Assembly: GCA_947258985.1 (NCBI GenBank)
Contig: CAMYKI010000012.1
Span: forward strand, 43,392 to 107,391
Direction: 5' to 3'
DNA from: an uncultured Acidimicrobiaceae bacterium
Lineage (GTDB): Bacteria; Actinomycetota; Acidimicrobiia; Spongiisociales; UBA5794
Length of the DNA: 64,000 nucleotides
The notes under the pieces were generated by a model that was not told the origin of the DNA, ran no database searches, and saw only the letters and a list, made by a program, of their open reading frames with translations. The position numbers were made by a program, and so were the translations under genes. Below are positions 28,972 to 36,597 of this stretch, piece by piece; position 1 is the first letter of the stretch, and each line of letters begins with the position of its first letter.

Positions 28972-29973
28972 ATGAACCGCACTACCGCGATCCGTCGGAC
29001 GAGAACTGCCGCCTTTGTGTTCCTCTCGGCGTTGCTGATGGTGACTGCCTCGGAACGCGTTTACTGGTACCTGGGCGGAGCGAATCTCGAGTCGATCTTC
29101 GCTATCGCCGGGTTCTACGTACTGCCGACGCTCGCTGCCCTCTGGGCAATCGGAAGCGGGCCATCGAACCGGCTCCACCAGATGATCCTTGCCGGAGCCA
29201 TATTCGGCTTCGTAGTGGAAGGCGTGCTCACACCGGTGATCTACGAGGACGGTCCGCTACCCGTCATGGCCGCCCTCTTCGTCGGCTGGCATGGCTTGTT
29301 CAGTGTCGTCGGGTTCTGGTATCTGACCAGGCGGTGGCTGCTTGCCGGGCGGCGTCGCCTCCTCGCGGCGAGCGCAACTGCGATGGGCGCCTATTGGGGC
29401 GTCTGGTCGCTGGGATATCGCCTGCCGAGCGCCTTCGAGGATTTTGAGGAGCCGTTTGAGGTCATGGGACCGGGCGACTTCGCTGTGTATGCGCTCACCG
29501 TTGGTGGCGTCTTCGCTCTCGGCCACTATCTGATCGGTTTTGTGTGGCCGGAGAGATTTGCTCCCGGCAAGTGGGGGAGACGGAGCATTGCGCTGTTGCT
29601 TCTGGGGTACGGCGCACTTGCGGTTCTTCCTGTGGTCCCCTGGGCGCCGGTCAAGTTTGCGATTCTGGTTGGGGGATCCGTCTGGTTGTTACGGCGCAGC
29701 CGGGGAGCTACCCCGGGTGAGCCGACTGCGATCGAGGCGTTGCAGGGCCACGCAAGCCCCCGTGACTTTGCTCTACTCATGCTCATGCCGGTAGCTGCCG
29801 CGGTGTCCTATGCGGTCGGGTGGTCGTTTGACCCCGGTGACACGCTCGTCGAAGGGATCTTCACGACGTTCTCGATCGGGCAGGTGATTGCCGGGCTGGT
29901 CGCGTTTGTCTGGGCGGCTCGTCGGTCGTTGCGGCGTACCAACCAGGAGCCGGCATTCTCAAACGTCGAGTAG
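28972..29973 (+). CDS. Hypothetical multi-pass membrane protein
   Basis: About 9 hydrophobic segments; FGFVVEGV and WHGLFSV. Confidence 0.75.
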   Translation: MNRTTAIRRTRTAAFVFLSALLMVTASERVYWYLGGANLESIFAIAGFYVLPTLAALWAIGSGPSNRLHQMILAGAIFGFVVEGVLTPVIYEDGPLPVMAALFVGWHGLFSVVGFWYLTRRWLLAGRRRLLAASATAMGAYWGVWSLGYRLPSAFEDFEEPFEVMGPGDFAVYALTVGGVFALGHYLIGFVWPERFAPGKWGRRSIALLLLGYGALAVLPVVPWAPVKFAILVGGSVWLLRRSRGATPGEPTAIEALQGHASPRDFALLMLMPVAAAVSYAVGWSFDPGDTLVEGIFTTFSIGQVIAGLVAFVWAARRSLRRTNQEPAFSNVE

Positions 29974-30816
29974 CCAGCGCGCCGTCTCGATGTGCCGGGG
30001 CAGCATGTTGCCGCGCTCGAAGCCCCAAGCGACGGCCTGGCCAAACGCCCAGAGACGAGCACGATCTCGATCTAGCCCCAACTCGCCGGTCAATCGATCG
30101 AGGCGGCGGACCACCGCATCCCGGCTGTGGCCAAACTCGTACGAGCGGATGATCGGGCTCAGCCCGAACTCGCGCTCCCCGATGAGGGGCTTGGGGTCGA
30201 TCGCCAACCAGGGCTCCCGCCGGGCCCGCAGTACGTTGTCGCCGTGCAGATCCTGGTGCAGCAGCACCTGTTCTCCCTGAGAGCCGGCCAACCCGACCAG
30301 CGTGTCGATCGCCTCGCTGAGCAGCAAGTGCTCGAACGGCTCACCTGCCCGTTCCCATTCCTCCGGAAGGTTGTGCACCCAACGGGCGACCTCGTCCTCG
30401 AGCGACCCGAAGGGTGCAGACGCCGCAACCCACAGCCTTGGCAAGAGGTCGATCATTGCGCCTAGGCCCACCTGAGCGGCGGTCGTTGATAGGTGCGTTC
30501 CGGGGTCGCACCGTTCCACGAGAAGGGCGTTGGCTTCGGCGTCGTGGTCGATCAGCCGGATTGCCCCGTTGCCTCCCCACCGCGCAAGAGCCGCTGCTTC
30601 GTGCTCACTCTCCCGATGTGGGTACTGGATCTTCAACACGATTTGCTCCCTGGCTCGGTTGACCGGAACGACCAGCGACACGTACGAGGCGTCGTACGGG
30701 GCGCCGAGATCCAGGTTCCATCGATCGGCACAGGCGGCCAGGGTGGCCGGGAGAGAGCCGAGCCAGGTCCTGCCTGCTTCGGAGTCCCGCAACCAGTCGA
30801 GGCCGGCCGGGATCAC
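29959..30816 (-). CDS. Aminoglycoside/hydroxyurea phosphotransferase family kinase (APH(6)-like)
   Basis: VLKI, HEAAALARWGGNGAIRL, LLHQDLHGDNVL, WLAIDPKPLIGE; start uncertain (30816-30894). Confidence 0.85.
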   Translation of the reverse strand: MIPAGLDWLRDSEAGRTWLGSLPATLAACADRWNLDLGAPYDASYVSLVVPVNRAREQIVLKIQYPHRESEHEAAALARWGGNGAIRLIDHDAEANALLVERCDPGTHLSTTAAQVGLGAMIDLLPRLWVAASAPFGSLEDEVARWVHNLPEEWERAGEPFEHLLLSEAIDTLVGLAGSQGEQVLLHQDLHGDNVLRARREPWLAIDPKPLIGEREFGLSPIIRSYEFGHSRDAVVRRLDRLTGELGLDRDRARLWAFGQAVAWGFERGNMLPRHIETARWLLDV

Positions 30817-30842
30817 GGTCGGAGGGAATGCACGTCGACCAC

Positions 30843-32255
30843 TCAGCTCTTGTTCACCGAAGCTGCGAGCGCGTTGATCCCATCCACGAAGCACTCGATG
30901 GGTGCTTCAACCAGACCGGCGCCGACCATTCCGGTTCCCGGGACCTTGCCGGCGACACCCGTGTTGATCTGCGGCAAGACGCCGGTGCGGACAACACGCC
31001 CCGCATCGATTCCGGTTGGCGTGCCCCGGAACTCCAACATCGGGATCTGGTACGACGGATGCTCGGCCAGGGTGATCTCGTACATCGCCAACGTGCGCCG
31101 CACTGCTCCGGCGGCTGTTCCGCCGACGAACCCAACGATGGCCGGCGCTGCCGCCATGGCGAAGCCGCCCAACCCAACGGTTTCGGTGATCGTCGAATCA
31201 CCGATGTCGGGGCTGGCGTCCTCCTCGGTGAATGCCCCGAGATACAGCCCAGCGACCGGTGGGGCTGGGGCGGTGAACCACTCGTCCCCGGTGCCGGAGA
31301 GGCGCACGCCAAAGTCGGTGCCGTTGCGAGCCATGACCGTCACCAGGCTGGATGCGGTCACACCGGCTGCGGCATCCGAGCCGAGCTTGCCTGCCGCCAT
31401 CACCAGATTGAGCATGAAGTGATCGTTGCCGTCGACGAACTTGAATACCTCGAGGCGTTGATCGACGGGGGCGTCGGCACCCTCGACCAGGGCAGCGCCG
31501 ATCTCTCGAAGGAACAACGAGGTCACCGCTCGATTGCGATTGTGCCCGTCGTCACCCATCTGCAGCGCCTGTGCAATCAGCGACTGCAGGTCGACCGGCC
31601 CCCGGCTGCGCAGAGCCGCTCCAAGCACCGGTCCCAGCACACGGTCCATCCACTGCAAGCGCTCGATGACCTCGGGAGCAAATGCCCCGTAGCGGAGCAC
31701 CTTCCCTAGGCCCTCATTGAGTGTCGAATACGAAACTCCACTCCCGGCGCCGTCTTCGATGACCGCAACGGGCATAGACGGCGACGTGACGCCGGCCATC
31801 GGTCCGACCGCACCGTGATGGTGACACGGAGACAGCTCAATTTCGCCCCGAGCCGCTCTGGCTGTGGCGTCGTCCGGATCGGAGGCCAGGCCCTCATAGA
31901 GCATCGCCCCGATGATGGCTCCCCGCATCGGTCCGCTGGCGCGCTCCCACTCGATCGGAGGCCCGGCGTGGAACAGTGTGCGCTCACTCATGCCGGCAAA
32001 GACATCCCGGGCGATACGCACGTCAACGAGATGGGGCCGAACCGCCAGCAGCCTGTCGACGGCAGCTGCGTTGGCTTCCGCCATCCGACCGTCTGTGGCC
32101 AGCCGGGCCAGCGCCGCCGCCGTGTCGGGGTGAGGCGGCTGCCAGTCGGCGCGAAACACAGTCGATCCCTGCTGTTCTATCGAGTCGGCAAGCATGTCGG
32201 TCCCCGCTGTTGCGACGACCGGATCGTTATCGAGAAGTGGGCTGAGATCAGTCAT
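30843..32255 (-). CDS. DUF1116 (YlbE/AllG-like) carbamoyltransferase subunit
   Basis: HAGPPIEW, PCHHHGAVGPMAG, NEGLGKVLRYGA, ALQMGDDGHNRN, MARNGTDFG, PDIGDSTITET, PQINTGVA. Confidence 0.9.
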   Translation of the reverse strand: MTDLSPLLDNDPVVATAGTDMLADSIEQQGSTVFRADWQPPHPDTAAALARLATDGRMAEANAAAVDRLLAVRPHLVDVRIARDVFAGMSERTLFHAGPPIEWERASGPMRGAIIGAMLYEGLASDPDDATARAARGEIELSPCHHHGAVGPMAGVTSPSMPVAVIEDGAGSGVSYSTLNEGLGKVLRYGAFAPEVIERLQWMDRVLGPVLGAALRSRGPVDLQSLIAQALQMGDDGHNRNRAVTSLFLREIGAALVEGADAPVDQRLEVFKFVDGNDHFMLNLVMAAGKLGSDAAAGVTASSLVTVMARNGTDFGVRLSGTGDEWFTAPAPPVAGLYLGAFTEEDASPDIGDSTITETVGLGGFAMAAAPAIVGFVGGTAAGAVRRTLAMYEITLAEHPSYQIPMLEFRGTPTGIDAGRVVRTGVLPQINTGVAGKVPGTGMVGAGLVEAPIECFVDGINALAASVNKS

Positions 32256-33682
32256 ACCGCCGTCCTTGTCGTAGCCAGGCGAGCCGCTTCCATCGCTGCG
32301 GCCGCGTTCGAGAGCCACACCGACGCCCCCGCAGCGTGGAGAGCGCTGGCCTGAGCGTCCCGGTTCTGGGGGTCACCGCGGGTCCCGCACAGCGAGACCA
32401 CGACGGCGGATCCTGCGCTAATCGCCTCTTCGATTACTGGTGCCAATTCGGCCGCGGGGTCGGCATTGGAGCCGAAGCCGAGGACGACGTCCATAAGAAT
32501 CACCCCGATCGACGGATCGGCGGCCGCCGCGGCAAGTCGCTCGATGCGAACGGTCTGGTCGATCATCGGGTGAGCGCGGCCCTGGGTGTACTCATCATCG
32601 CCGTAGTCGATGAAGGTGTGGCCGGAGTCTCCCTCACGCTTGCCGATGTCGCCGAGCAGGGGCATCGCCACGAAGTGGGCCTCATCTCGGAGGGTTCCTC
32701 CCGAAAAGAGCCCCCGGACTGTGCCGCCACGGTGATCGTCCTGCGATACCTCCCACGAGGCGTAGCGGACCGACGGCTTGCCCAGTTTGGCGAGGACCTC
32801 CCCGGCGCCTTCCTCGAGGGTGGTCTCGCCCATGAAGGTGATGACGACCGGTTTGATGCACTCGGCCGCTGCCGCCCGCACCCGGGCCGCGACCGGCAGA
32901 GCAGGAGGCTTGCTGATGACCGATATGACATCTACCGATGGATCGGCGTCGAGGGCTGCGAGCCCCTGCAGGGTCGAGATGGCGCCGATGTCCTCCGACA
33001 GATCGTGGCTCCCGGTTCCCAAGGCGTGCCTGACGCCCACACCGGCGTCGTCGAGCAGGCAGAGCATCTGCTGGATACCGGTGCCGGAAGCGCCGACGAT
33101 GCCGACCGGCCCCGGTGGCACGGCGTTGGCAAAACCCAGCCCGAGCCCGTTGACGACGGCGGTGCCACAGTCCGGTCCCATCACGAGCAGGTCGTGGTCG
33201 GCTCCGAATTGCTTCAGGAGCAGTTCCTGTTCGACGGGTACGTTGTCGCTGAAGATCATGACATGCCGACCGGTGTGCAGCGCCTCCATTGCCTCAACGA
33301 AGGCATGTTCGCCGGGGACCGAGAGAAGCACGATGTTGGCCTCGCCGGCGTCGGCCGCGGTACCTACGGTCTTCGGATCCGGGGCGTCGAGTCCGCCGGA
33401 CGGTGCTGCTTTGTGACTCAATGCATCCTCGAGAACCTGGTGGGCAAGCGTGATGGCCTCCTCCCCTTCGCCCCGCAGCGCCAGCAATAGGTCGTTGGTG
33501 CCGGCGCCGGCGACCGCGGCCATATCGAAGGCCATGTCTTCGAGCAGGCTCAGGTTGAGCTCTGTTGCCATCGCAACCAGGGCGTCGTCGATCCCGGGGA
33601 CGTCCTGTAGCGCCCGGCTGGCCTGCATCAGCCGCACCGAATCGTGGTAGCGGCCGGGGAATAGCTCAACCCGAGAGATCAT
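32252..33682 (-). CDS. fdrA: FdrA (AllF-like) acyl-CoA-synthetase-fold protein
   Basis: YHDSVRLM, FSDNVP, MGPDCGT, VGASGTGIQ, GLFSGGTL, DYGDDEYTQGRAHPMID. Confidence 0.92.
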   Translation of the reverse strand: MISRVELFPGRYHDSVRLMQASRALQDVPGIDDALVAMATELNLSLLEDMAFDMAAVAGAGTNDLLLALRGEGEEAITLAHQVLEDALSHKAAPSGGLDAPDPKTVGTAADAGEANIVLLSVPGEHAFVEAMEALHTGRHVMIFSDNVPVEQELLLKQFGADHDLLVMGPDCGTAVVNGLGLGFANAVPPGPVGIVGASGTGIQQMLCLLDDAGVGVRHALGTGSHDLSEDIGAISTLQGLAALDADPSVDVISVISKPPALPVAARVRAAAAECIKPVVITFMGETTLEEGAGEVLAKLGKPSVRYASWEVSQDDHRGGTVRGLFSGGTLRDEAHFVAMPLLGDIGKREGDSGHTFIDYGDDEYTQGRAHPMIDQTVRIERLAAAAADPSIGVILMDVVLGFGSNADPAAELAPVIEEAISAGSAVVVSLCGTRGDPQNRDAQASALHAAGASVWLSNAAAAMEAARLATTRTAV

Positions 33683-34563
33683 GTCTGGCTCCGATCTGAA
33701 TCTGAATTGTCTTGGATCAACGCCTCGGCTGCGCAGACGATGCCGGCAGCGAGGGCGGGACCTGAACTATGCCCGACGCTCTGGAGGCGGGCGTGTGACT
33801 GTGTGATGTCGCCCCTGCCGGTGAGCGCCCTCAGGAAGGCTCCGGCCGGTTCGGCGACCTCGCCGCGCAAGGCATGCCGGATGAGGGCGGCGGAGAAGGT
33901 AGTGGTGCGGGCATCGGCGATGAGCGTCATCGGCAGGGCACATTGGTCAAGCATCTCGATAGCGGGTCGGTGGCATAGGGATCTGCTCAACGTTCTGACT
34001 CCGGCGATGACACCCGCCATGTAGTCATCGCCCTCGGGTGTCAGTCCGGGCCCCCTCCCGATGTGCGGCTCGGCCGCGGCGATGAAAGCCGCCGGGGACC
34101 AGACGACGAGAGCATCTCGGAGTGTTGCGGCTTCTATGGTGGGCACGGCTGCCGGGAACCCTTGTATCGCCGTTCCCAATTGCTCGGGGGTGACTGTGGG
34201 CAACACCGGAACGGGATCCCACCAGCGGGCCACCCTGACTGTGAGACCTCCGAAGGCGACTCGTCCGACACCAATCTCGACGGCTTCTCCGTGATTAAGA
34301 ACGCCAAGTGGGCCGTCGGTGGAGTTGGCCGCCATCTCGACGGCGTTGGGGAGACGGGTAGCGTCCCGCGTCGAAATCACGATGACGGTGTCGCCGACGA
34401 GCAGCCAGGCAGCGTAGTCGGAAGCGCCCAGGACCGTTGCGGTCCCGGGCACGGTGAGCAGGTCGCGGACGGCGACACTGGCGACTGCGGTCACCCTCAC
34501 GGGTGCCTGAGTCGAACGGACTTCAATCGCCGTGTGGCGCGTCCCAACCGCAGATGCGGCCAT
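33679..34563 (-). CDS. DUF2877 (YlbF/AllH-like) protein
   Basis: GRGPGLTPEGDD and VGHSSG motifs, RTTTFS. Confidence 0.88.
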   Translation of the reverse strand: MAASAVGTRHTAIEVRSTQAPVRVTAVASVAVRDLLTVPGTATVLGASDYAAWLLVGDTVIVISTRDATRLPNAVEMAANSTDGPLGVLNHGEAVEIGVGRVAFGGLTVRVARWWDPVPVLPTVTPEQLGTAIQGFPAAVPTIEAATLRDALVVWSPAAFIAAAEPHIGRGPGLTPEGDDYMAGVIAGVRTLSRSLCHRPAIEMLDQCALPMTLIADARTTTFSAALIRHALRGEVAEPAGAFLRALTGRGDITQSHARLQSVGHSSGPALAAGIVCAAEALIQDNSDSDRSQT

Positions 34564-34565
34564 GG

Positions 34566-35663
34566 CTACCCGACGTCGACGATGGCAGCGACCGGTCCGC
34601 CTCCACTCGGCCCCTGGTGAAGAGCCGCCACGGAAACAAAGACTGCAGCGTCGTTCACCGCGGCGCCCACGACACCACCGACGGCTCCCTTGATGTGTCT
34701 GTGGTGATGGACGTCCGAGTCGTCGAGTGCGACCTGCCGCCTGCCGCGCAACCGTGAGGTCGGATCCGCCTCACACTTCACGAAAACATTGACGAGTTTG
34801 TCGCCGAGATCCTGATAGACGGCGCGTTCTGGGAGATCAAGGCCGGCATCGCGGATTGCCCGGTAGACGCCTTCCTGGTCGAGGGCGTCGTTCATGACGT
34901 CGTGGCCGATGCGATAACGGCCACCTGCTCCGGGGGCGTTGCCGACGACGACAGTCTGAGCCTGGTCGAGTTCGACACCAGAGGAGCAGGATGCCACCGA
35001 CGAGAAGAGACTCAGATCATGACCGATCTGTTCGGCGGTCGGCATGTCGATCTCTCCAAGCGCAACCGCAATCCCGAGTGCCGAGGTGCCGTTGGAGACG
35101 TTCATCGACTCGAGCGGATCCTCCGTGAACACTGTATGCCCGCGTGACTTGGCATCGTTGATGGTGTCCATGACGAGAAGAGGAGTCTTCGTTTGCACAT
35201 AGTGGACGTCGGCCGGGTCTTCGATTCCGGCCTCGGCCATGGCACGGCGCACGCCTTCGGCCACCTTGGTGACCATCTCCGGCCTGCCGATGTCCTCGGG
35301 CAGGATTACATCGCTCATCGCATAGCCGACTGCCAGCCGGGGCTCATCCGTCGCCGGGCCCTCGTCTTCGACCTTGGCAAAGACGGTCGCGTGCGGGCAG
35401 AGGATCCCGTCCGTCCCACCGGACCAGACCATTGGAATCTCTTTCACCACGTCGTATGGCCTGGTTCCCTTGTCCATGAGAACCTTGCGGAATGCCTGGT
35501 CGGCCAGGATTCGGGTGAAGTCGTTGACTCCGCCGTTGCCCTCGGTCTTGCCGACGACCGCCACGACACCATCGGCGTCGAATGCGCCCTCTTCGATCAG
35601 GGCTGCCAGCCCGGATGCATCACTAACACTTTCGAGAACGACCTTCCGTACCTCGATGGCCAT
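34566..35663 (-). CDS. Ring-opening amidohydrolase of the AtzD/barbiturase (Toblerone-fold) family, barbiturase-like
   Basis: [57 protein letters not shown]. Confidence 0.9.
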
Positions 35664-35826
35664 GGTTCCCACTTCCTTTCCTCGCCGAAGCCTTCGACTC
35701 GATGCACCGTTGCGCCGCGGTGCGAATAATCCATCATCGGATCAACCACCTTTCGAGACTAGGGACGAACGGCCCTCAGTGGGCGGCAGATCGGGAGACA
35801 CTGGTGGCGCTGCGTACACTGGCCGA

Positions 35827-36597
35827 ATGAGATCAATTGCGATTGTGCGTGGTGTGCCGGATTCCTTTGCCGATGCGCTGGTGATTGGGGAAACGCCGAC
35901 GATCGATGTCGATCGCGCTCGGGAACAGCACGCCGTATATACGGAATTCCTGGCAGCCAACGGCTACGAGCTAACGATGCTCGAATCGGATGAGGCCCTG
36001 CCGGACTGTCCGTTCGTCGAAGACACCGCAGTGATACTCGATACCGTGGCGGTCCTCACCAGGCCGGGGGCCGAGGCGAGGCGTGGCGAGGTGAGAGCAA
36101 TGGCCGGGGCCCTCGAAGCCCTGATGCCCACTCGCAACATCACCCGCCCGGGAACGCTCGACGGAGGCGATGTGCTCCGCCTCGGCCGAACCGTCTACGT
36201 CGGATTGTCGGCACGCACCAACAGAGACGGGATCAACCAGCTTGCCGGCATCGCTGCACAAGGTGGACTCGAGACCGTCGCCGTCCCGGTTGGCGACGTG
36301 CTTCATCTCAAATCAGCCGTCGCCAGACTCGACGAAGAGACTGTTCTGCTCGCACCGAGTTGTGTCGACCGGAACCTGTTCTCCGGATACCGCATCATCG
36401 AAAAGGTCCCCGAGGAGGCTCACCTTGCGAGCGTGCTCACCCTGGGCAATGGTTCCATGGCGGCGACGACAACGGCACCGCAGACTTTGGATCGTCTCCG
36501 CCATTCTGGATATGACCCGGTTCTTGTCGATTCGTCGGAGTTTCAGGCCGCAGACGGCGGGTTGACGTGCCTGTCGGTGTTGATTGATTCACCCTGA
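35827..36597 (+). CDS. Dimethylarginine dimethylaminohydrolase / amidinotransferase family
   Basis: PDCPFVEDTA, RPGAEARRGE, LDGGDVL, RTN, LHLKS, DGGLTCLS. Confidence 0.9.
   Translation: MRSIAIVRGVPDSFADALVIGETPTIDVDRAREQHAVYTEFLAANGYELTMLESDEALPDCPFVEDTAVILDTVAVLTRPGAEARRGEVRAMAGALEALMPTRNITRPGTLDGGDVLRLGRTVYVGLSARTNRDGINQLAGIAAQGGLETVAVPVGDVLHLKSAVARLDEETVLLAPSCVDRNLFSGYRIIEKVPEEAHLASVLTLGNGSMAATTTAPQTLDRLRHSGYDPVLVDSSEFQAADGGLTCLSVLIDSP

Follow-up and report, generated by a model that had tools for sequence, protein, structure and literature searches.

A barbiturase–AllFGH-type gene cluster of Actinomycetota as a candidate phosphorolytic route of pyrimidine catabolism

Described pathways of ureide cleavage

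To our knowledge, barbiturase alone among the enzymes of the oxidative pyrimidine pathway has an assigned gene, and ureidomalonase is an orphan enzyme. In Rhodococcus erythropolis, the pathway is reported to comprise uracil/thymine dehydrogenase, barbiturase (PDB 5hwe) and ureidomalonase (Soong et al., 2001, 2002, cited in PMC3758960 and PMC4051656), the last of which is described as a hydrolytic enzyme yielding urea and malonate (PMC3758960). The closest described counterpart of the remaining genes considered here is found in E. coli, in which the oxamate carbamoyltransferase AllF-AllG-AllH, accompanied by the carbamate kinase AllK (Kim & Kim, 2024; PMC11326118), comprises the same three families, likewise encoded together. 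According to that report, the chemistry of E. coli AllFGH on oxalurate, an N-acylurea homologous to ureidomalonate, is established, and the purified enzyme transfers the carbamoyl group between carbamoyl phosphate and oxamate in an assay described as containing no CoA (PMC11326118).

Two further systems invite comparison. In comammox bacteria and ammonia-oxidizing archaea, allFGHK is reported to adjoin biuret and triuret hydrolase genes (mSystems 2025; PMC12625717); the module is interpreted there as serving oxalurate degradation, the nitrifier genomes are reported to lack the cyanuric acid hydrolase gene atzD, and the term ‘barbitur’ is absent from the text. A precedent for the existence of both hydrolytic and phosphorolytic enzymes for ureido cleavage is offered by UacY and YgeW, respectively, in the account given of reductive uric acid degradation (bioRxiv 10.1101/2025.05.19.654654). 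The pairing of YgeW/YqeA versus UacY shares the logic of the scheme proposed below, in that the phosphorolytic variant feeds carbamate kinase for ATP; YgeW, described as a transcarbamylase with the classical OTCase fold whose substrate is an N-carbamoyl amino acid, is unrelated to AllFGH.

The operon and its products

Four minus-strand genes at 30843-35672 of the window (the whole 64-kb stretch of DNA analysed, from an uncultured actinobacterium) are intact, with no internal stops in any of the four long ORFs, and are translationally coupled:

35672..34566, minus strand: barbiturase-type ring-opening amidohydrolase, 368 aa from GTG 35672 (PF09663, TIGR02714, 5hwe)
34563..33679, minus strand: AllH / DUF2877 subunit, 294 aa (PF11392)
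33682..32252, minus strand: AllF / FdrA-like subunit, 476 aa (PF00549 and PF02629)
32255..30843, minus strand: AllG / DUF1116 subunit, 470 aa (PF06545)

The tight coupling of hydrolase, DUF2877, FdrA and DUF1116 genes described in an earlier note on this DNA was confirmed by the ORFs and by Pfam, the hydrolase stop being separated from allH by a gap of 2 nt and the allH/allF and allF/allG junctions each consisting of a 4-nt ATGA overlap. Because homologues align from residue 4, the hydrolase is likely to start at ATG 35663 (365 aa) rather than at GTG 35672.

The hydrolase matches PF09663 (Amido_AtzD_TrzD) over the entire profile (480.7 bits, positions 1-358 of 358) and TIGR02714 with 503.6 bits. 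Its top PDB match is the Rhodococcus barbiturase 5hwe with 524.6 bits, whereas the cyanuric acid hydrolases 5t13, 6bum, 6dhj, 4bvq and 4nq3 score 239-310 bits (highest 309.6). The residues that the earlier note had taken to be of barbiturase type, namely QTKTPLL (160-166), Asn194 in VSNGTS and SCSSG (228-232), are indeed present, and in the PDB alignments all three features are shared with the 5hwe chain, while the cyanuric acid hydrolases carry QVKCPLL, SRGAS and STSAG at the same sites. Asn194 aligns with Asn in 5hwe and with the Arg of SRGAS, that is, the site of the second substrate-binding Arg (Arg188, A. caulinodans numbering) of cyanuric acid hydrolases. The universal dyad is retained, Lys162 (QTK) and the serines of SCSSG aligning with the corresponding Lys and Ser, and all 97 of 97 barbiturase-clade sequences keep QTKTPLL, S-N-G/S and SCSSG. 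Judged by its sequence, the hydrolase groups with the characterized barbiturase and not with cyanuric acid hydrolase, the outcome that the earlier note had anticipated from such a comparison. There is a conflicting label, in that the NCBIfam equivalog NF052395 ‘cyanuric acid amidohydrolase’ was also passed (462.7 bits versus a cut-off of 360). The text of PMC4051656 gives glutamine as the barbiturase-subgroup residue at the Arg188-equivalent site, a mismatch with the Asn seen in our alignment.

The remaining three products correspond to the three subunits of the AllFGH oxamate carbamoyltransferase, FdrA-like, DUF1116 and DUF2877 proteins being encoded on three overlapping genes. AllH matches PF11392 (AllH) with 74.3 bits over residues 168-278 and E. 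coli YlbF with 30% identity over 105 aa, and has no match in NCBIfam or in PDB. AllF contains Ligase_CoA (PF00549, 96.3 bits) and CoA_binding (PF02629, 32.2 bits) domains, is 38% identical to E. coli FdrA, matches the FdrA structure 3dmy with 230 bits and scores 395.6 bits, under the cut-off of 433, against NF004760 (FdrA). AllG, the only one found in this genome, matches PF06545 (AllG) with 301.1 bits and PDB 3clq with 382 bits, and is 46% identical to E. coli YlbE. In an AllG tree made by quick search, the 25 sequences that stem from barbiturase genomes group as a single clade (SH-aLRT 98) with E. coli YlbE outside it; this placement, the levels of identity and the sub-threshold NF004760 score do not indicate orthology of the trio to the E. 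coli proteins.

The organization also differs from that in E. coli. The genes run in the order H-F-G instead of F-G-H, and the trio is partnered by a barbiturase rather than by allantoin enzymes. AllF lacks the C-terminal ~60 aa of E. coli FdrA, and the N-terminal 62 aa of AllG (as a profile from 68 loci) match E. coli FdrA residues 509-551 with 17-22 bits, so that a tail of ~45 aa of E. coli FdrA is here located on the AllG N terminus. In contrast to the linkage of AllK in E. coli, carbamate kinase is absent from the operon, although it is linked in many relatives. Compared with the nitrifier allFGHK genes as reported, the likeness lies in an AllFGH-type module and carbamate kinase beside enzymes that make small ureides or acylureas from nitrogen-rich rings, and the difference in the barbiturase partner and a separate AllG clade.

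Conservation and genomic context

Synteny was counted in the best 80 of 487 related loci, using for each gene only loci with enough flank. Downstream of the hydrolase, AllF is present in 62/68 loci whose flank reaches 2.3 kb or more, AllG in 56/60 whose flank is at least 3.7 kb and a molybdenum subunit in 38/45 whose flank is at least 7.6 kb. The four-gene cluster, whose conservation the earlier note had proposed as a check, is therefore widely kept among these loci, and its synteny extends across Actinomycetota families. In a sample of 401 Actinomycetota genomes, AllG occurs in all 17 barbiturase-clade genomes and in 35 of the 384 others; the pairing of hydrolase and AllFGH is not due to chance. 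The usual layout in this sample is Bar-permease-carbamate kinase-AllH-AllF-AllG-hydroxylase, and PucR-type (purine catabolism) regulators flank many of the clusters. Some relatives have Bar without AllF and AllG, as Bar-AllH-hydroxylase (L027) or Bar-AllH (L030); AllG was not found in the two large Bar-bearing genomes behind L051 and L072, and in Nonomuraea Bar stands alone within 14 kb on either side.

The hydroxylase that follows AllG in relatives has three subunits (FAD, 2Fe-2S and molybdenum, by Pfam) and passes no NCBIfam equivalog model. Its ortholog in this genome (88% identical) is located on the same contig, 59 kb from the operon (G000:C12:13081-15636), and downstream of it lies a permease that, among NCBIfam models, best matches uracil permease (339 bits, below cut-off); a uracil-type permease is linked to the cluster in relatives too. 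Hydroxylase and permease would fit a conversion of uracil to barbiturate, and they may correspond to the oxidative route of Rhodococcus erythropolis, with which the operon shares an orthologous barbiturase.

The absence of carbamate kinase from the window, pointed out in the earlier note, was upheld by a search of the genome (completeness 92.9%), which matched contigs C1 and C37 only, the window being part of C12. The carbamate kinase on C1 (TIGR00746, 377 bits) is encoded in a YgeW-like operon together with OTCase-family and PLP enzymes. Of the 16 other barbiturase-clade genomes in the sample, at least 12 have carbamate kinase in the vicinity of Bar or AllFGH. In relatives it often adjoins the cluster, directly after Bar in eight Acidimicrobiales loci and directly before it in L097, L103 and Embleya. 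With this co-occurrence, all computational checks that had been proposed turned out in favour of the earlier interpretation.

In Acidimicrobiia the cluster runs on with three genes, encoding a 252-aa protein, a thiolase-like protein and a DUF35 OB-fold protein. The 252-aa protein has no Pfam match; it is nearest to GNAT-like clusters in the Atlas, which we note as a lead only. A conserved candidate for the disposal of malonamate did not emerge across the Actinomycetota clusters.

A candidate phosphorolytic pathway and its alternatives

What we observe is the identity of the genes, their arrangement as an operon, the preserved synteny, the co-occurrence and the distinct AllG clade; what each of the three enzyme systems acts on, and a phosphorolytic chemistry on ureidomalonate, we infer. 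Our working hypothesis, to which we give a probability of about 60%, is that the operon supplies the central steps of an oxidative route of uracil/thymine catabolism. The base would be oxidized to barbiturate by the molybdenum hydroxylase, encoded at a distance here and in the same operon in most relatives, and the barbiturase homologue would open the ring to give ureidomalonate (N-malonylurea). AllH-AllF-AllG, as a paralogue of the E. coli oxamate carbamoyltransferase, would then use phosphate to cleave ureidomalonate, which is oxalurate plus one CH2, into malonamate and carbamoyl phosphate, the presumed chemistry (phosphorolysis of an N-acylurea to an amide and carbamoyl phosphate) being that reported for the E. 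coli enzyme. Carbamate kinase, here encoded on another contig, could convert carbamoyl phosphate to ATP, NH3 and CO2. The AllFGH-type enzyme would thus replace the urea-releasing ureidomalonase, so that the third step would be phosphorolytic where that of Rhodococcus is hydrolytic. The lack of carbamate kinase in the operon and the distance of the hydroxylase genes weigh against this pathway, as do the relatives that have Bar but not AllF and AllG, the NF052395 match, the missing candidate for malonamate disposal and the hydrolytic character of the Rhodococcus route. The genome also encodes a full-length homologue of urease alpha (602.8 bits, below cut-off), and there is therefore no obvious selective reason for avoiding urea. 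Our literature search found no paper describing phosphorolysis of ureidomalonate by an AllFGH-type enzyme in pyrimidine breakdown, and the specificity of AllFGH is, as far as we know, established for oxalurate only.

The hydrolase might instead open a related tri-oxo ring (for instance cyanuric acid, the 5-methylbarbiturate derived from thymine, or some other hydroxylated N-heterocycle), in which case the AllFGH-type enzyme would phosphorolyse the matching acylurea, e.g. carboxybiuret or biuret. The NF052395 match is in keeping with this, as are a cyanuric acid-type hydrolase (45% identical) followed by AllF and AllG in L104, an isochorismatase-family gene between AllH and AllF in L112, and the biuret and triuret hydrolase genes reported beside nitrifier allFGHK. 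We nevertheless consider it rather unlikely, because the solved barbiturase outscores the cyanuric acid hydrolases in the comparison (524 versus at most 310 bits), Asn takes the place of the Arg by which the latter bind the third ring carbonyl, hydroxylase and permease suit uracil, and barbiturase is reportedly inactive on cyanuric acid (PMC4051656). A little less credible still is a different chemistry for the coupled genes, with the FdrA-like subunit forming a thioester of ureidomalonate or malonamate by means of CoA or ATP, or with the complex simply hydrolysing the ureide. That subunit, with its CoA_binding and Ligase_CoA domains, resembles succinyl-CoA synthetase alpha, and the three extra Acidimicrobiia genes would fit acyl-CoA handling. 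However, no thiolase or DUF35 gene was found in the other Actinomycetota clusters, the E. coli enzyme is reported to transfer carbamoyl without CoA, and the carbamate kinase genes within many barbiturase clusters are understandable only if carbamoyl phosphate or carbamate is formed.

That the trio is an oxamate carbamoyltransferase of the usual, oxalurate-specific kind, serving purine/allantoin breakdown and merely located beside a barbiturase gene, appears very improbable. Its homology to the E. coli subunits and the PucR-type regulators would agree with such a function, as would an Ldh_2 protein on contig C84, the sole AllD-like protein of the genome (30% identical to AllD). Yet the trio is translationally coupled to the barbiturase gene, with synteny across families, AllG in every barbiturase-clade genome and an AllG clade separate from YlbE, and the genome shows no evident allantoin route to oxalurate: AllE was not found with the E. 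coli query at the completeness given above, and the best allantoinase match scored 279 bits against a cut-off of 358. In line with the earlier note, the 10 neighbouring ORFs scanned include no allantoin-pathway gene.

If ureidomalonate is indeed phosphorolysed, this would be an undescribed breakdown of uracil-type rings in which carbamoyl phosphate is recovered rather than urea released. It would provide a second substrate for the AllFGH transcarbamylase family, newly identified in 2024, explain AllFGH homologues located far from allantoin genes, and offer abundant environmental Actinomycetota a route to nitrogen and some ATP from nucleobases. The conserved cluster supplies testable candidates for uracil dehydrogenase and for a replacement of ureidomalonase and, as the enzymes are soluble and the substrates commercial or easily made, the claim is directly testable. 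More tentatively, and at not quite even odds, AllFGH-type enzymes may constitute a general ‘acylurea phosphorylase’ module joined to varied ring-opening enzymes, the barbiturase-linked clade marking a complete and hitherto unassigned group of genes by which uracil and thymine are oxidatively catabolized (molybdenum uracil dehydrogenase, barbiturase, ureidomalonate carbamoyltransferase and carbamate kinase). Such a gene set would give one ATP per ring through substrate-level phosphorylation and bypass urea. The partners seen with the module are barbiturase, cyanuric acid-type hydrolases, hydantoinase A/B and isochorismatase-type biuret hydrolases.

Gene content of the operon and identity of its hydrolase

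The four-gene finding is real. All four genes described in the earlier note are long minus-strand ORFs, free of internal stop codons and arranged head to tail, and the tight coupling claimed for them was found as a 2-nt gap followed by two 4-nt ATGA overlaps.

Genes of the operon (window coordinates)
35672..34566, minus: hydrolase (Bar), 368 aa; PF09663, 480.7 bits
34563..33679, minus: AllH/DUF2877, 294 aa; PF11392, 74.3 bits
33682..32252, minus: AllF/FdrA, 476 aa; PF00549 + PF02629
32255..30843, minus: AllG/DUF1116, 470 aa; PF06545, 301.1 bits

Because homologue alignments begin at residue 4, the hydrolase is likely to start at the ATG at 35663, the coordinate originally assigned. A scan of 29800-36100 gave no promoter-like sites (0.6 in shuffled sequence) and four terminator-like sites (2.7 in shuffled sequence), and nothing usable emerged. 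Three metatranscriptome runs from one study contained a fraction of 0.08-0.15 of the sampled words and yielded short contigs of 165-591 nt that fall on allG, allF and allH with 0-12 mismatched positions, one of which, of 508 nt, bridged the allF/allG junction. As such libraries can contain DNA, these contigs are only a weak hint of expression, and the bridging contig is not proof of a single transcript; stretches with no contig on them are uninformative.

The assignment of the hydrolase to the characterised barbiturases was upheld when all PDB chains were searched: the Rhodococcus enzyme (5hwe) was the best match at 524.6 bits, with cyanuric acid hydrolases at 239-310 bits. In the PDB alignments, the hydrolase and 5hwe have in common the barbiturase-type residues QTKTPLL, Asn and SCSSG, where cyanuric acid hydrolases carry QVKCPLL, SRGAS and STSAG, the Asn aligning with the Arg of SRGAS. 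In an alignment of 100 homologues from the stored loci, the barbiturase-type motifs were kept in all 97 sequences that share 65 % identity or more with the hydrolase, and motifs of the cyanuric acid hydrolase type were present in two of the three distant ones. Cho et al. (PMC4051656) describe a barbiturase subgroup carrying glutamine at the position where Arg is replaced; however, both the solved chain 5hwe and the hydrolase have Asn. The hydrolase also scores above the cut-off of the NCBIfam equivalog model for cyanuric acid amidohydrolase, so that automatic annotation would probably mislabel the gene.

Synteny in close relatives and the remainder of the proposed pathway

A scan of species-representative genomes identified relatives of the hydrolase in 487 stretches, of which the best 80 (72-94 % identity), nearly all titled Acidimicrobiia or Actinomycetota MAGs, were kept. 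Conservation of the four-gene cluster was clear among these 80 loci (loci carry L-numbers throughout): where there was enough flank, AllF lay downstream of the hydrolase in 62/68 loci, AllG in 56/60 and AllH, which is divergent and hence under-detected by tblastn, in 58/75. In most loci the operon continues with the FAD (PF00941), 2Fe-2S (PF01799) and molybdopterin (PF02738 + PF20256) subunits of a hydroxylase, the last present in 38 of the 45 loci whose flank spans 7.6 kb or more, and with genes for a 252-aa protein that matches no Pfam family, for thiolase-like (PF22691) and DUF35 OB-fold proteins, and for a permease. Eight Acidimicrobiales loci carry a carbamate kinase gene directly downstream of Bar. 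Two exceptions, L027 (133-5841; Bar, AllH and hydroxylase, without AllF and AllG) and L030 (4511-6451; Bar and AllH only), look like natural deletion variants that have lost AllF/AllG, and would be useful for probing what AllH does alone.

Two further loci of the genome that contains the window (G000; the window is C12:43392-107391) are relevant.

Loci of the proposed pathway elsewhere in G000
G000:C12:8860-16822 (= L088 4860-12822), outside the window: XDH-family hydroxylase and neighbours, the second half-cluster
G000:C1:99985-106479 (= L089 3985-10479): carbamate kinase locus, with a GntR regulator and second OTCase-family gene divergent

On the contig of the window, at G000:C12:13081-15636 and thus approximately 59 kb away from the barbiturase operon, lies an ortholog of the molybdenum subunit with 88 % identity. 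Its operon encodes all three hydroxylase subunits, the 252-aa, thiolase-like and DUF35 OB-fold proteins and an NCS2 permease, for which the best NCBIfam model is uracil permease (339 bits against a cut-off of 477), the RutG and xanthine permease models scoring lower. The location of the hydroxylase half therefore indicates that one ancestral cluster was split in two in the G000 lineage. An ORF at the edge of this half-cluster, ‘p162’ (L088:4860-5348), was dropped as probably not a gene, being of low complexity, without a family and matched in 0/80 of the best loci.

There is a single copy of AllG in G000. The earlier note had found no carbamate kinase in the window, and the only one in G000 above the arcC cut-off is indeed on contig C1. 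Its operon also encodes two OTCase-family proteins, two PLP enzymes and a GntR regulator, a layout resembling that of YgeW/YgeX/YqeA in reductive uric acid degradation. AllE was not found in G000 with the E. coli query, nor was any allantoinase above cut-off. The notion that a urease-negative organism would gain by bypassing urea was rejected, as G000 encodes a full-length urease alpha homologue.

The AllF-AllG-AllH proteins and their distribution

Purified FdrA/YlbE/YlbF of E. coli constitute an oxamic transcarbamylase that interconverts oxalurate plus Pi and oxamate plus carbamoyl phosphate, and are encoded with the carbamate kinase AllK, according to Kim & Kim (PMC11326118). Compared with these proteins (K-12 record), AllF, AllG and AllH are 38, 46 and 30 % identical, respectively (AllH over 105 aa); FdrA is approximately 80 aa shorter here and AllG approximately 50 aa longer. 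When the AllG N termini of 68 loci were combined into a profile, this matched residues 509-551 of E. coli FdrA with 17-22 bits in a three-sequence search, although BLASTP with this N terminus gave no match. The N-terminal ~45 aa of AllG thus have their counterpart in the C-terminal tail of the E. coli protein FdrA, and the allF/allG boundary is therefore placed differently; either the boundary may have shifted or a former fusion may have been cut elsewhere.

A quick IQ-TREE search was made with 41 AllG proteins. These represent all stored loci in which AllG matched over nearly its whole length, except that the 80 close loci were reduced to 13 on the basis of identity and duplicates from the own genome were left out. 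One clade (SH-aLRT 98) united the 25 proteins whose loci or genomes carry barbiturase, with E. coli YlbE outside it, grouping with L114; as close kin carry the same labels and only a quick search was made, the tree shows a distinct subfamily and nothing more.

In a sample of 401 Actinomycetota genomes, a hydrolase 69-73 % identical to the query was present in 17, G000 included, and a distant one (42-46 %) in four. AllG was found in 52 of the 401, namely in 17/17 of the barbiturase clade (16/16 when G268, flagged as unpublished, is omitted) and 35/384 of the others. Loci were examined from 15 of the 16 other barbiturase-clade genomes: AllF and AllG lay within about 10 kb of Bar in eight, a ninth had AllF at the locus edge and AllG just beyond, in four more AllG was further off, at 17, 28 and 44 kb on the contig of Bar or on a different contig, and two were on contigs of less than 8 kb. 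A typical cluster runs from Bar through NCS2 permease, carbamate kinase, AllH, AllF and AllG to the hydroxylase, with a PucR-type regulator alongside. The expected association with carbamate kinase was also seen, the gene being in the neighbourhood of Bar or AllFGH in 12 or more of the 16 genomes besides G000; in L097, L103 and Embleya sp. NBC_00888 it immediately precedes Bar. The clustered kinases score 329-357 bits on TIGR00746 and exceed the NF009007 carbamate kinase cut-off. As the family is common (166/401 genomes at E <= 1e-60, 17/17 in the barbiturase clade), it is adjacency rather than co-occurrence that is informative.

AllG was not found in the two large Bar-carrying genomes behind L051 and L072, and in Nonomuraea Bar stands alone within 14 kb on either side. 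No gene was common to the Bar neighbourhoods of L051, L061 and L072, which are without AllFGH, and these yielded no ureidomalonase candidate. L080 comes from genome G401 of another phylum; of 301 genomes of that phylum, G401 alone carried a barbiturase-clade gene, with no wider pattern.

The AllF/AllG pair also occurs with other partners. In Actinomycetota without barbiturase, L110 (349-11966), L111 and L115 have AllF and AllG after genes for hydantoinase A/B and an XDH-family hydroxylase, so that the module is here combined with a ring-opening partner of another kind; in L110 an M29 peptidase follows AllG. L112 (5164-10940) has carbamate kinase, AllH, an isochorismatase-family gene, AllF and AllG in a row, L116 has AllF/AllG with a permease and cyclase, and in L104 the pair follows a hydrolase of the cyanuric acid type. 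In PMC12625717, allFGHK is reported as collocated with biuret and triuret hydrolase genes in nitrifiers, and the row in L112 resembles this biuH-allFGHK arrangement. These varied contexts, in agreement with that report, suggest a module serving several ureide-producing routes.

Predicted ureidomalonate phosphorolysis and neighbouring genes

With the gene-family identities, translational coupling, synteny with hydroxylase, uracil-type permease and carbamate kinase, and dedicated AllG clade established, the operon appears to be two known systems joined, and AllFGH-type cleavage of ureidomalonate, as the earlier note proposed, is the best-supported prediction at the level of comparative genomics. 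Barbiturase converts barbiturate to ureidomalonate, which Rhodococcus then hydrolyses to urea and malonate (summarised in PMC3758960). Ureidomalonate is oxalurate plus one CH2. In the proposed pathway, a base would be taken up by the permease, hydroxylated to barbiturate by the molybdenum enzyme and ring-opened by the barbiturase homologue; AllH-AllF-AllG would then transfer the carbamoyl group of ureidomalonate to phosphate, leaving malonamate, and carbamate kinase would yield ATP, NH3 and CO2. In Acidimicrobiia, malonamate may be handled as a CoA ester by the GNAT-like, thiolase-like and DUF35 proteins; the 252-aa protein is GNAT-like by Atlas placement, which is a lead only. Malonyl-CoA decarboxylase has a GNAT fold. 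No conserved malonamate amidase was found in the Actinomycetota clusters, where ketol-acid reductoisomerase, the only extra family common to six genomes, is probably plain synteny; a CN_hydrolase gene adjoins the hydroxylase in Embleya, a single occurrence.

It is possible that the hydrolase acts on another ring, such as cyanurate, 5-methylbarbiturate or another hydroxylated heterocycle, but its barbiturase-type residues and the uracil-type permease lower the weight of this explanation. CoA- or ATP-based chemistry of the trio is suggested by the FdrA fold, yet would leave the embedded carbamate kinase unexplained. That the trio is an ordinary oxalurate enzyme beside Bar by chance is contradicted by the translational coupling, the conserved synteny and the presence of AllG throughout the barbiturase clade, as well as by the separate AllG clade and by G000 having no evident route for allantoin. 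A full-text search, covering main texts and few subscription journals, found nothing linking barbiturase or barbiturate catabolism with AllFGH/FdrA/DUF1116 or carbamate kinase, so that the link may have been mentioned in print before.

Neighbouring genes in the window
29959-30894, minus: APH(6)/hydroxyurea-resistance-kinase family gene directly after allG; PF04655, 95.8 bits
35800-36597, plus: amidinotransferase/arginine-deiminase-fold gene, divergent, upstream of the hydrolase; PF02274, 38.9 bits
40467-41186, plus: Asp/Glu/hydantoin racemase family gene, 4.8 kb upstream of the operon; PF01177, 135 bits
26043-27113, plus: Mut7-C RNase domain gene with a ubiquitin-like Ub-Mut7C domain ahead, unrelated to the operon

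The APH(6)-family gene occupies the position at which most relatives have the hydroxylase; a similar gene directly follows AllG in the nearest relatives of the window (L003, L004, L014 and L017) and is also matched in L030. Where other relatives have a gene at the position of the amidinotransferase-fold gene, upstream of the hydrolase, it encodes a PucR-type regulator (13 of the best 80 of 487 loci). The racemase superfamily includes arylmalonate decarboxylases.
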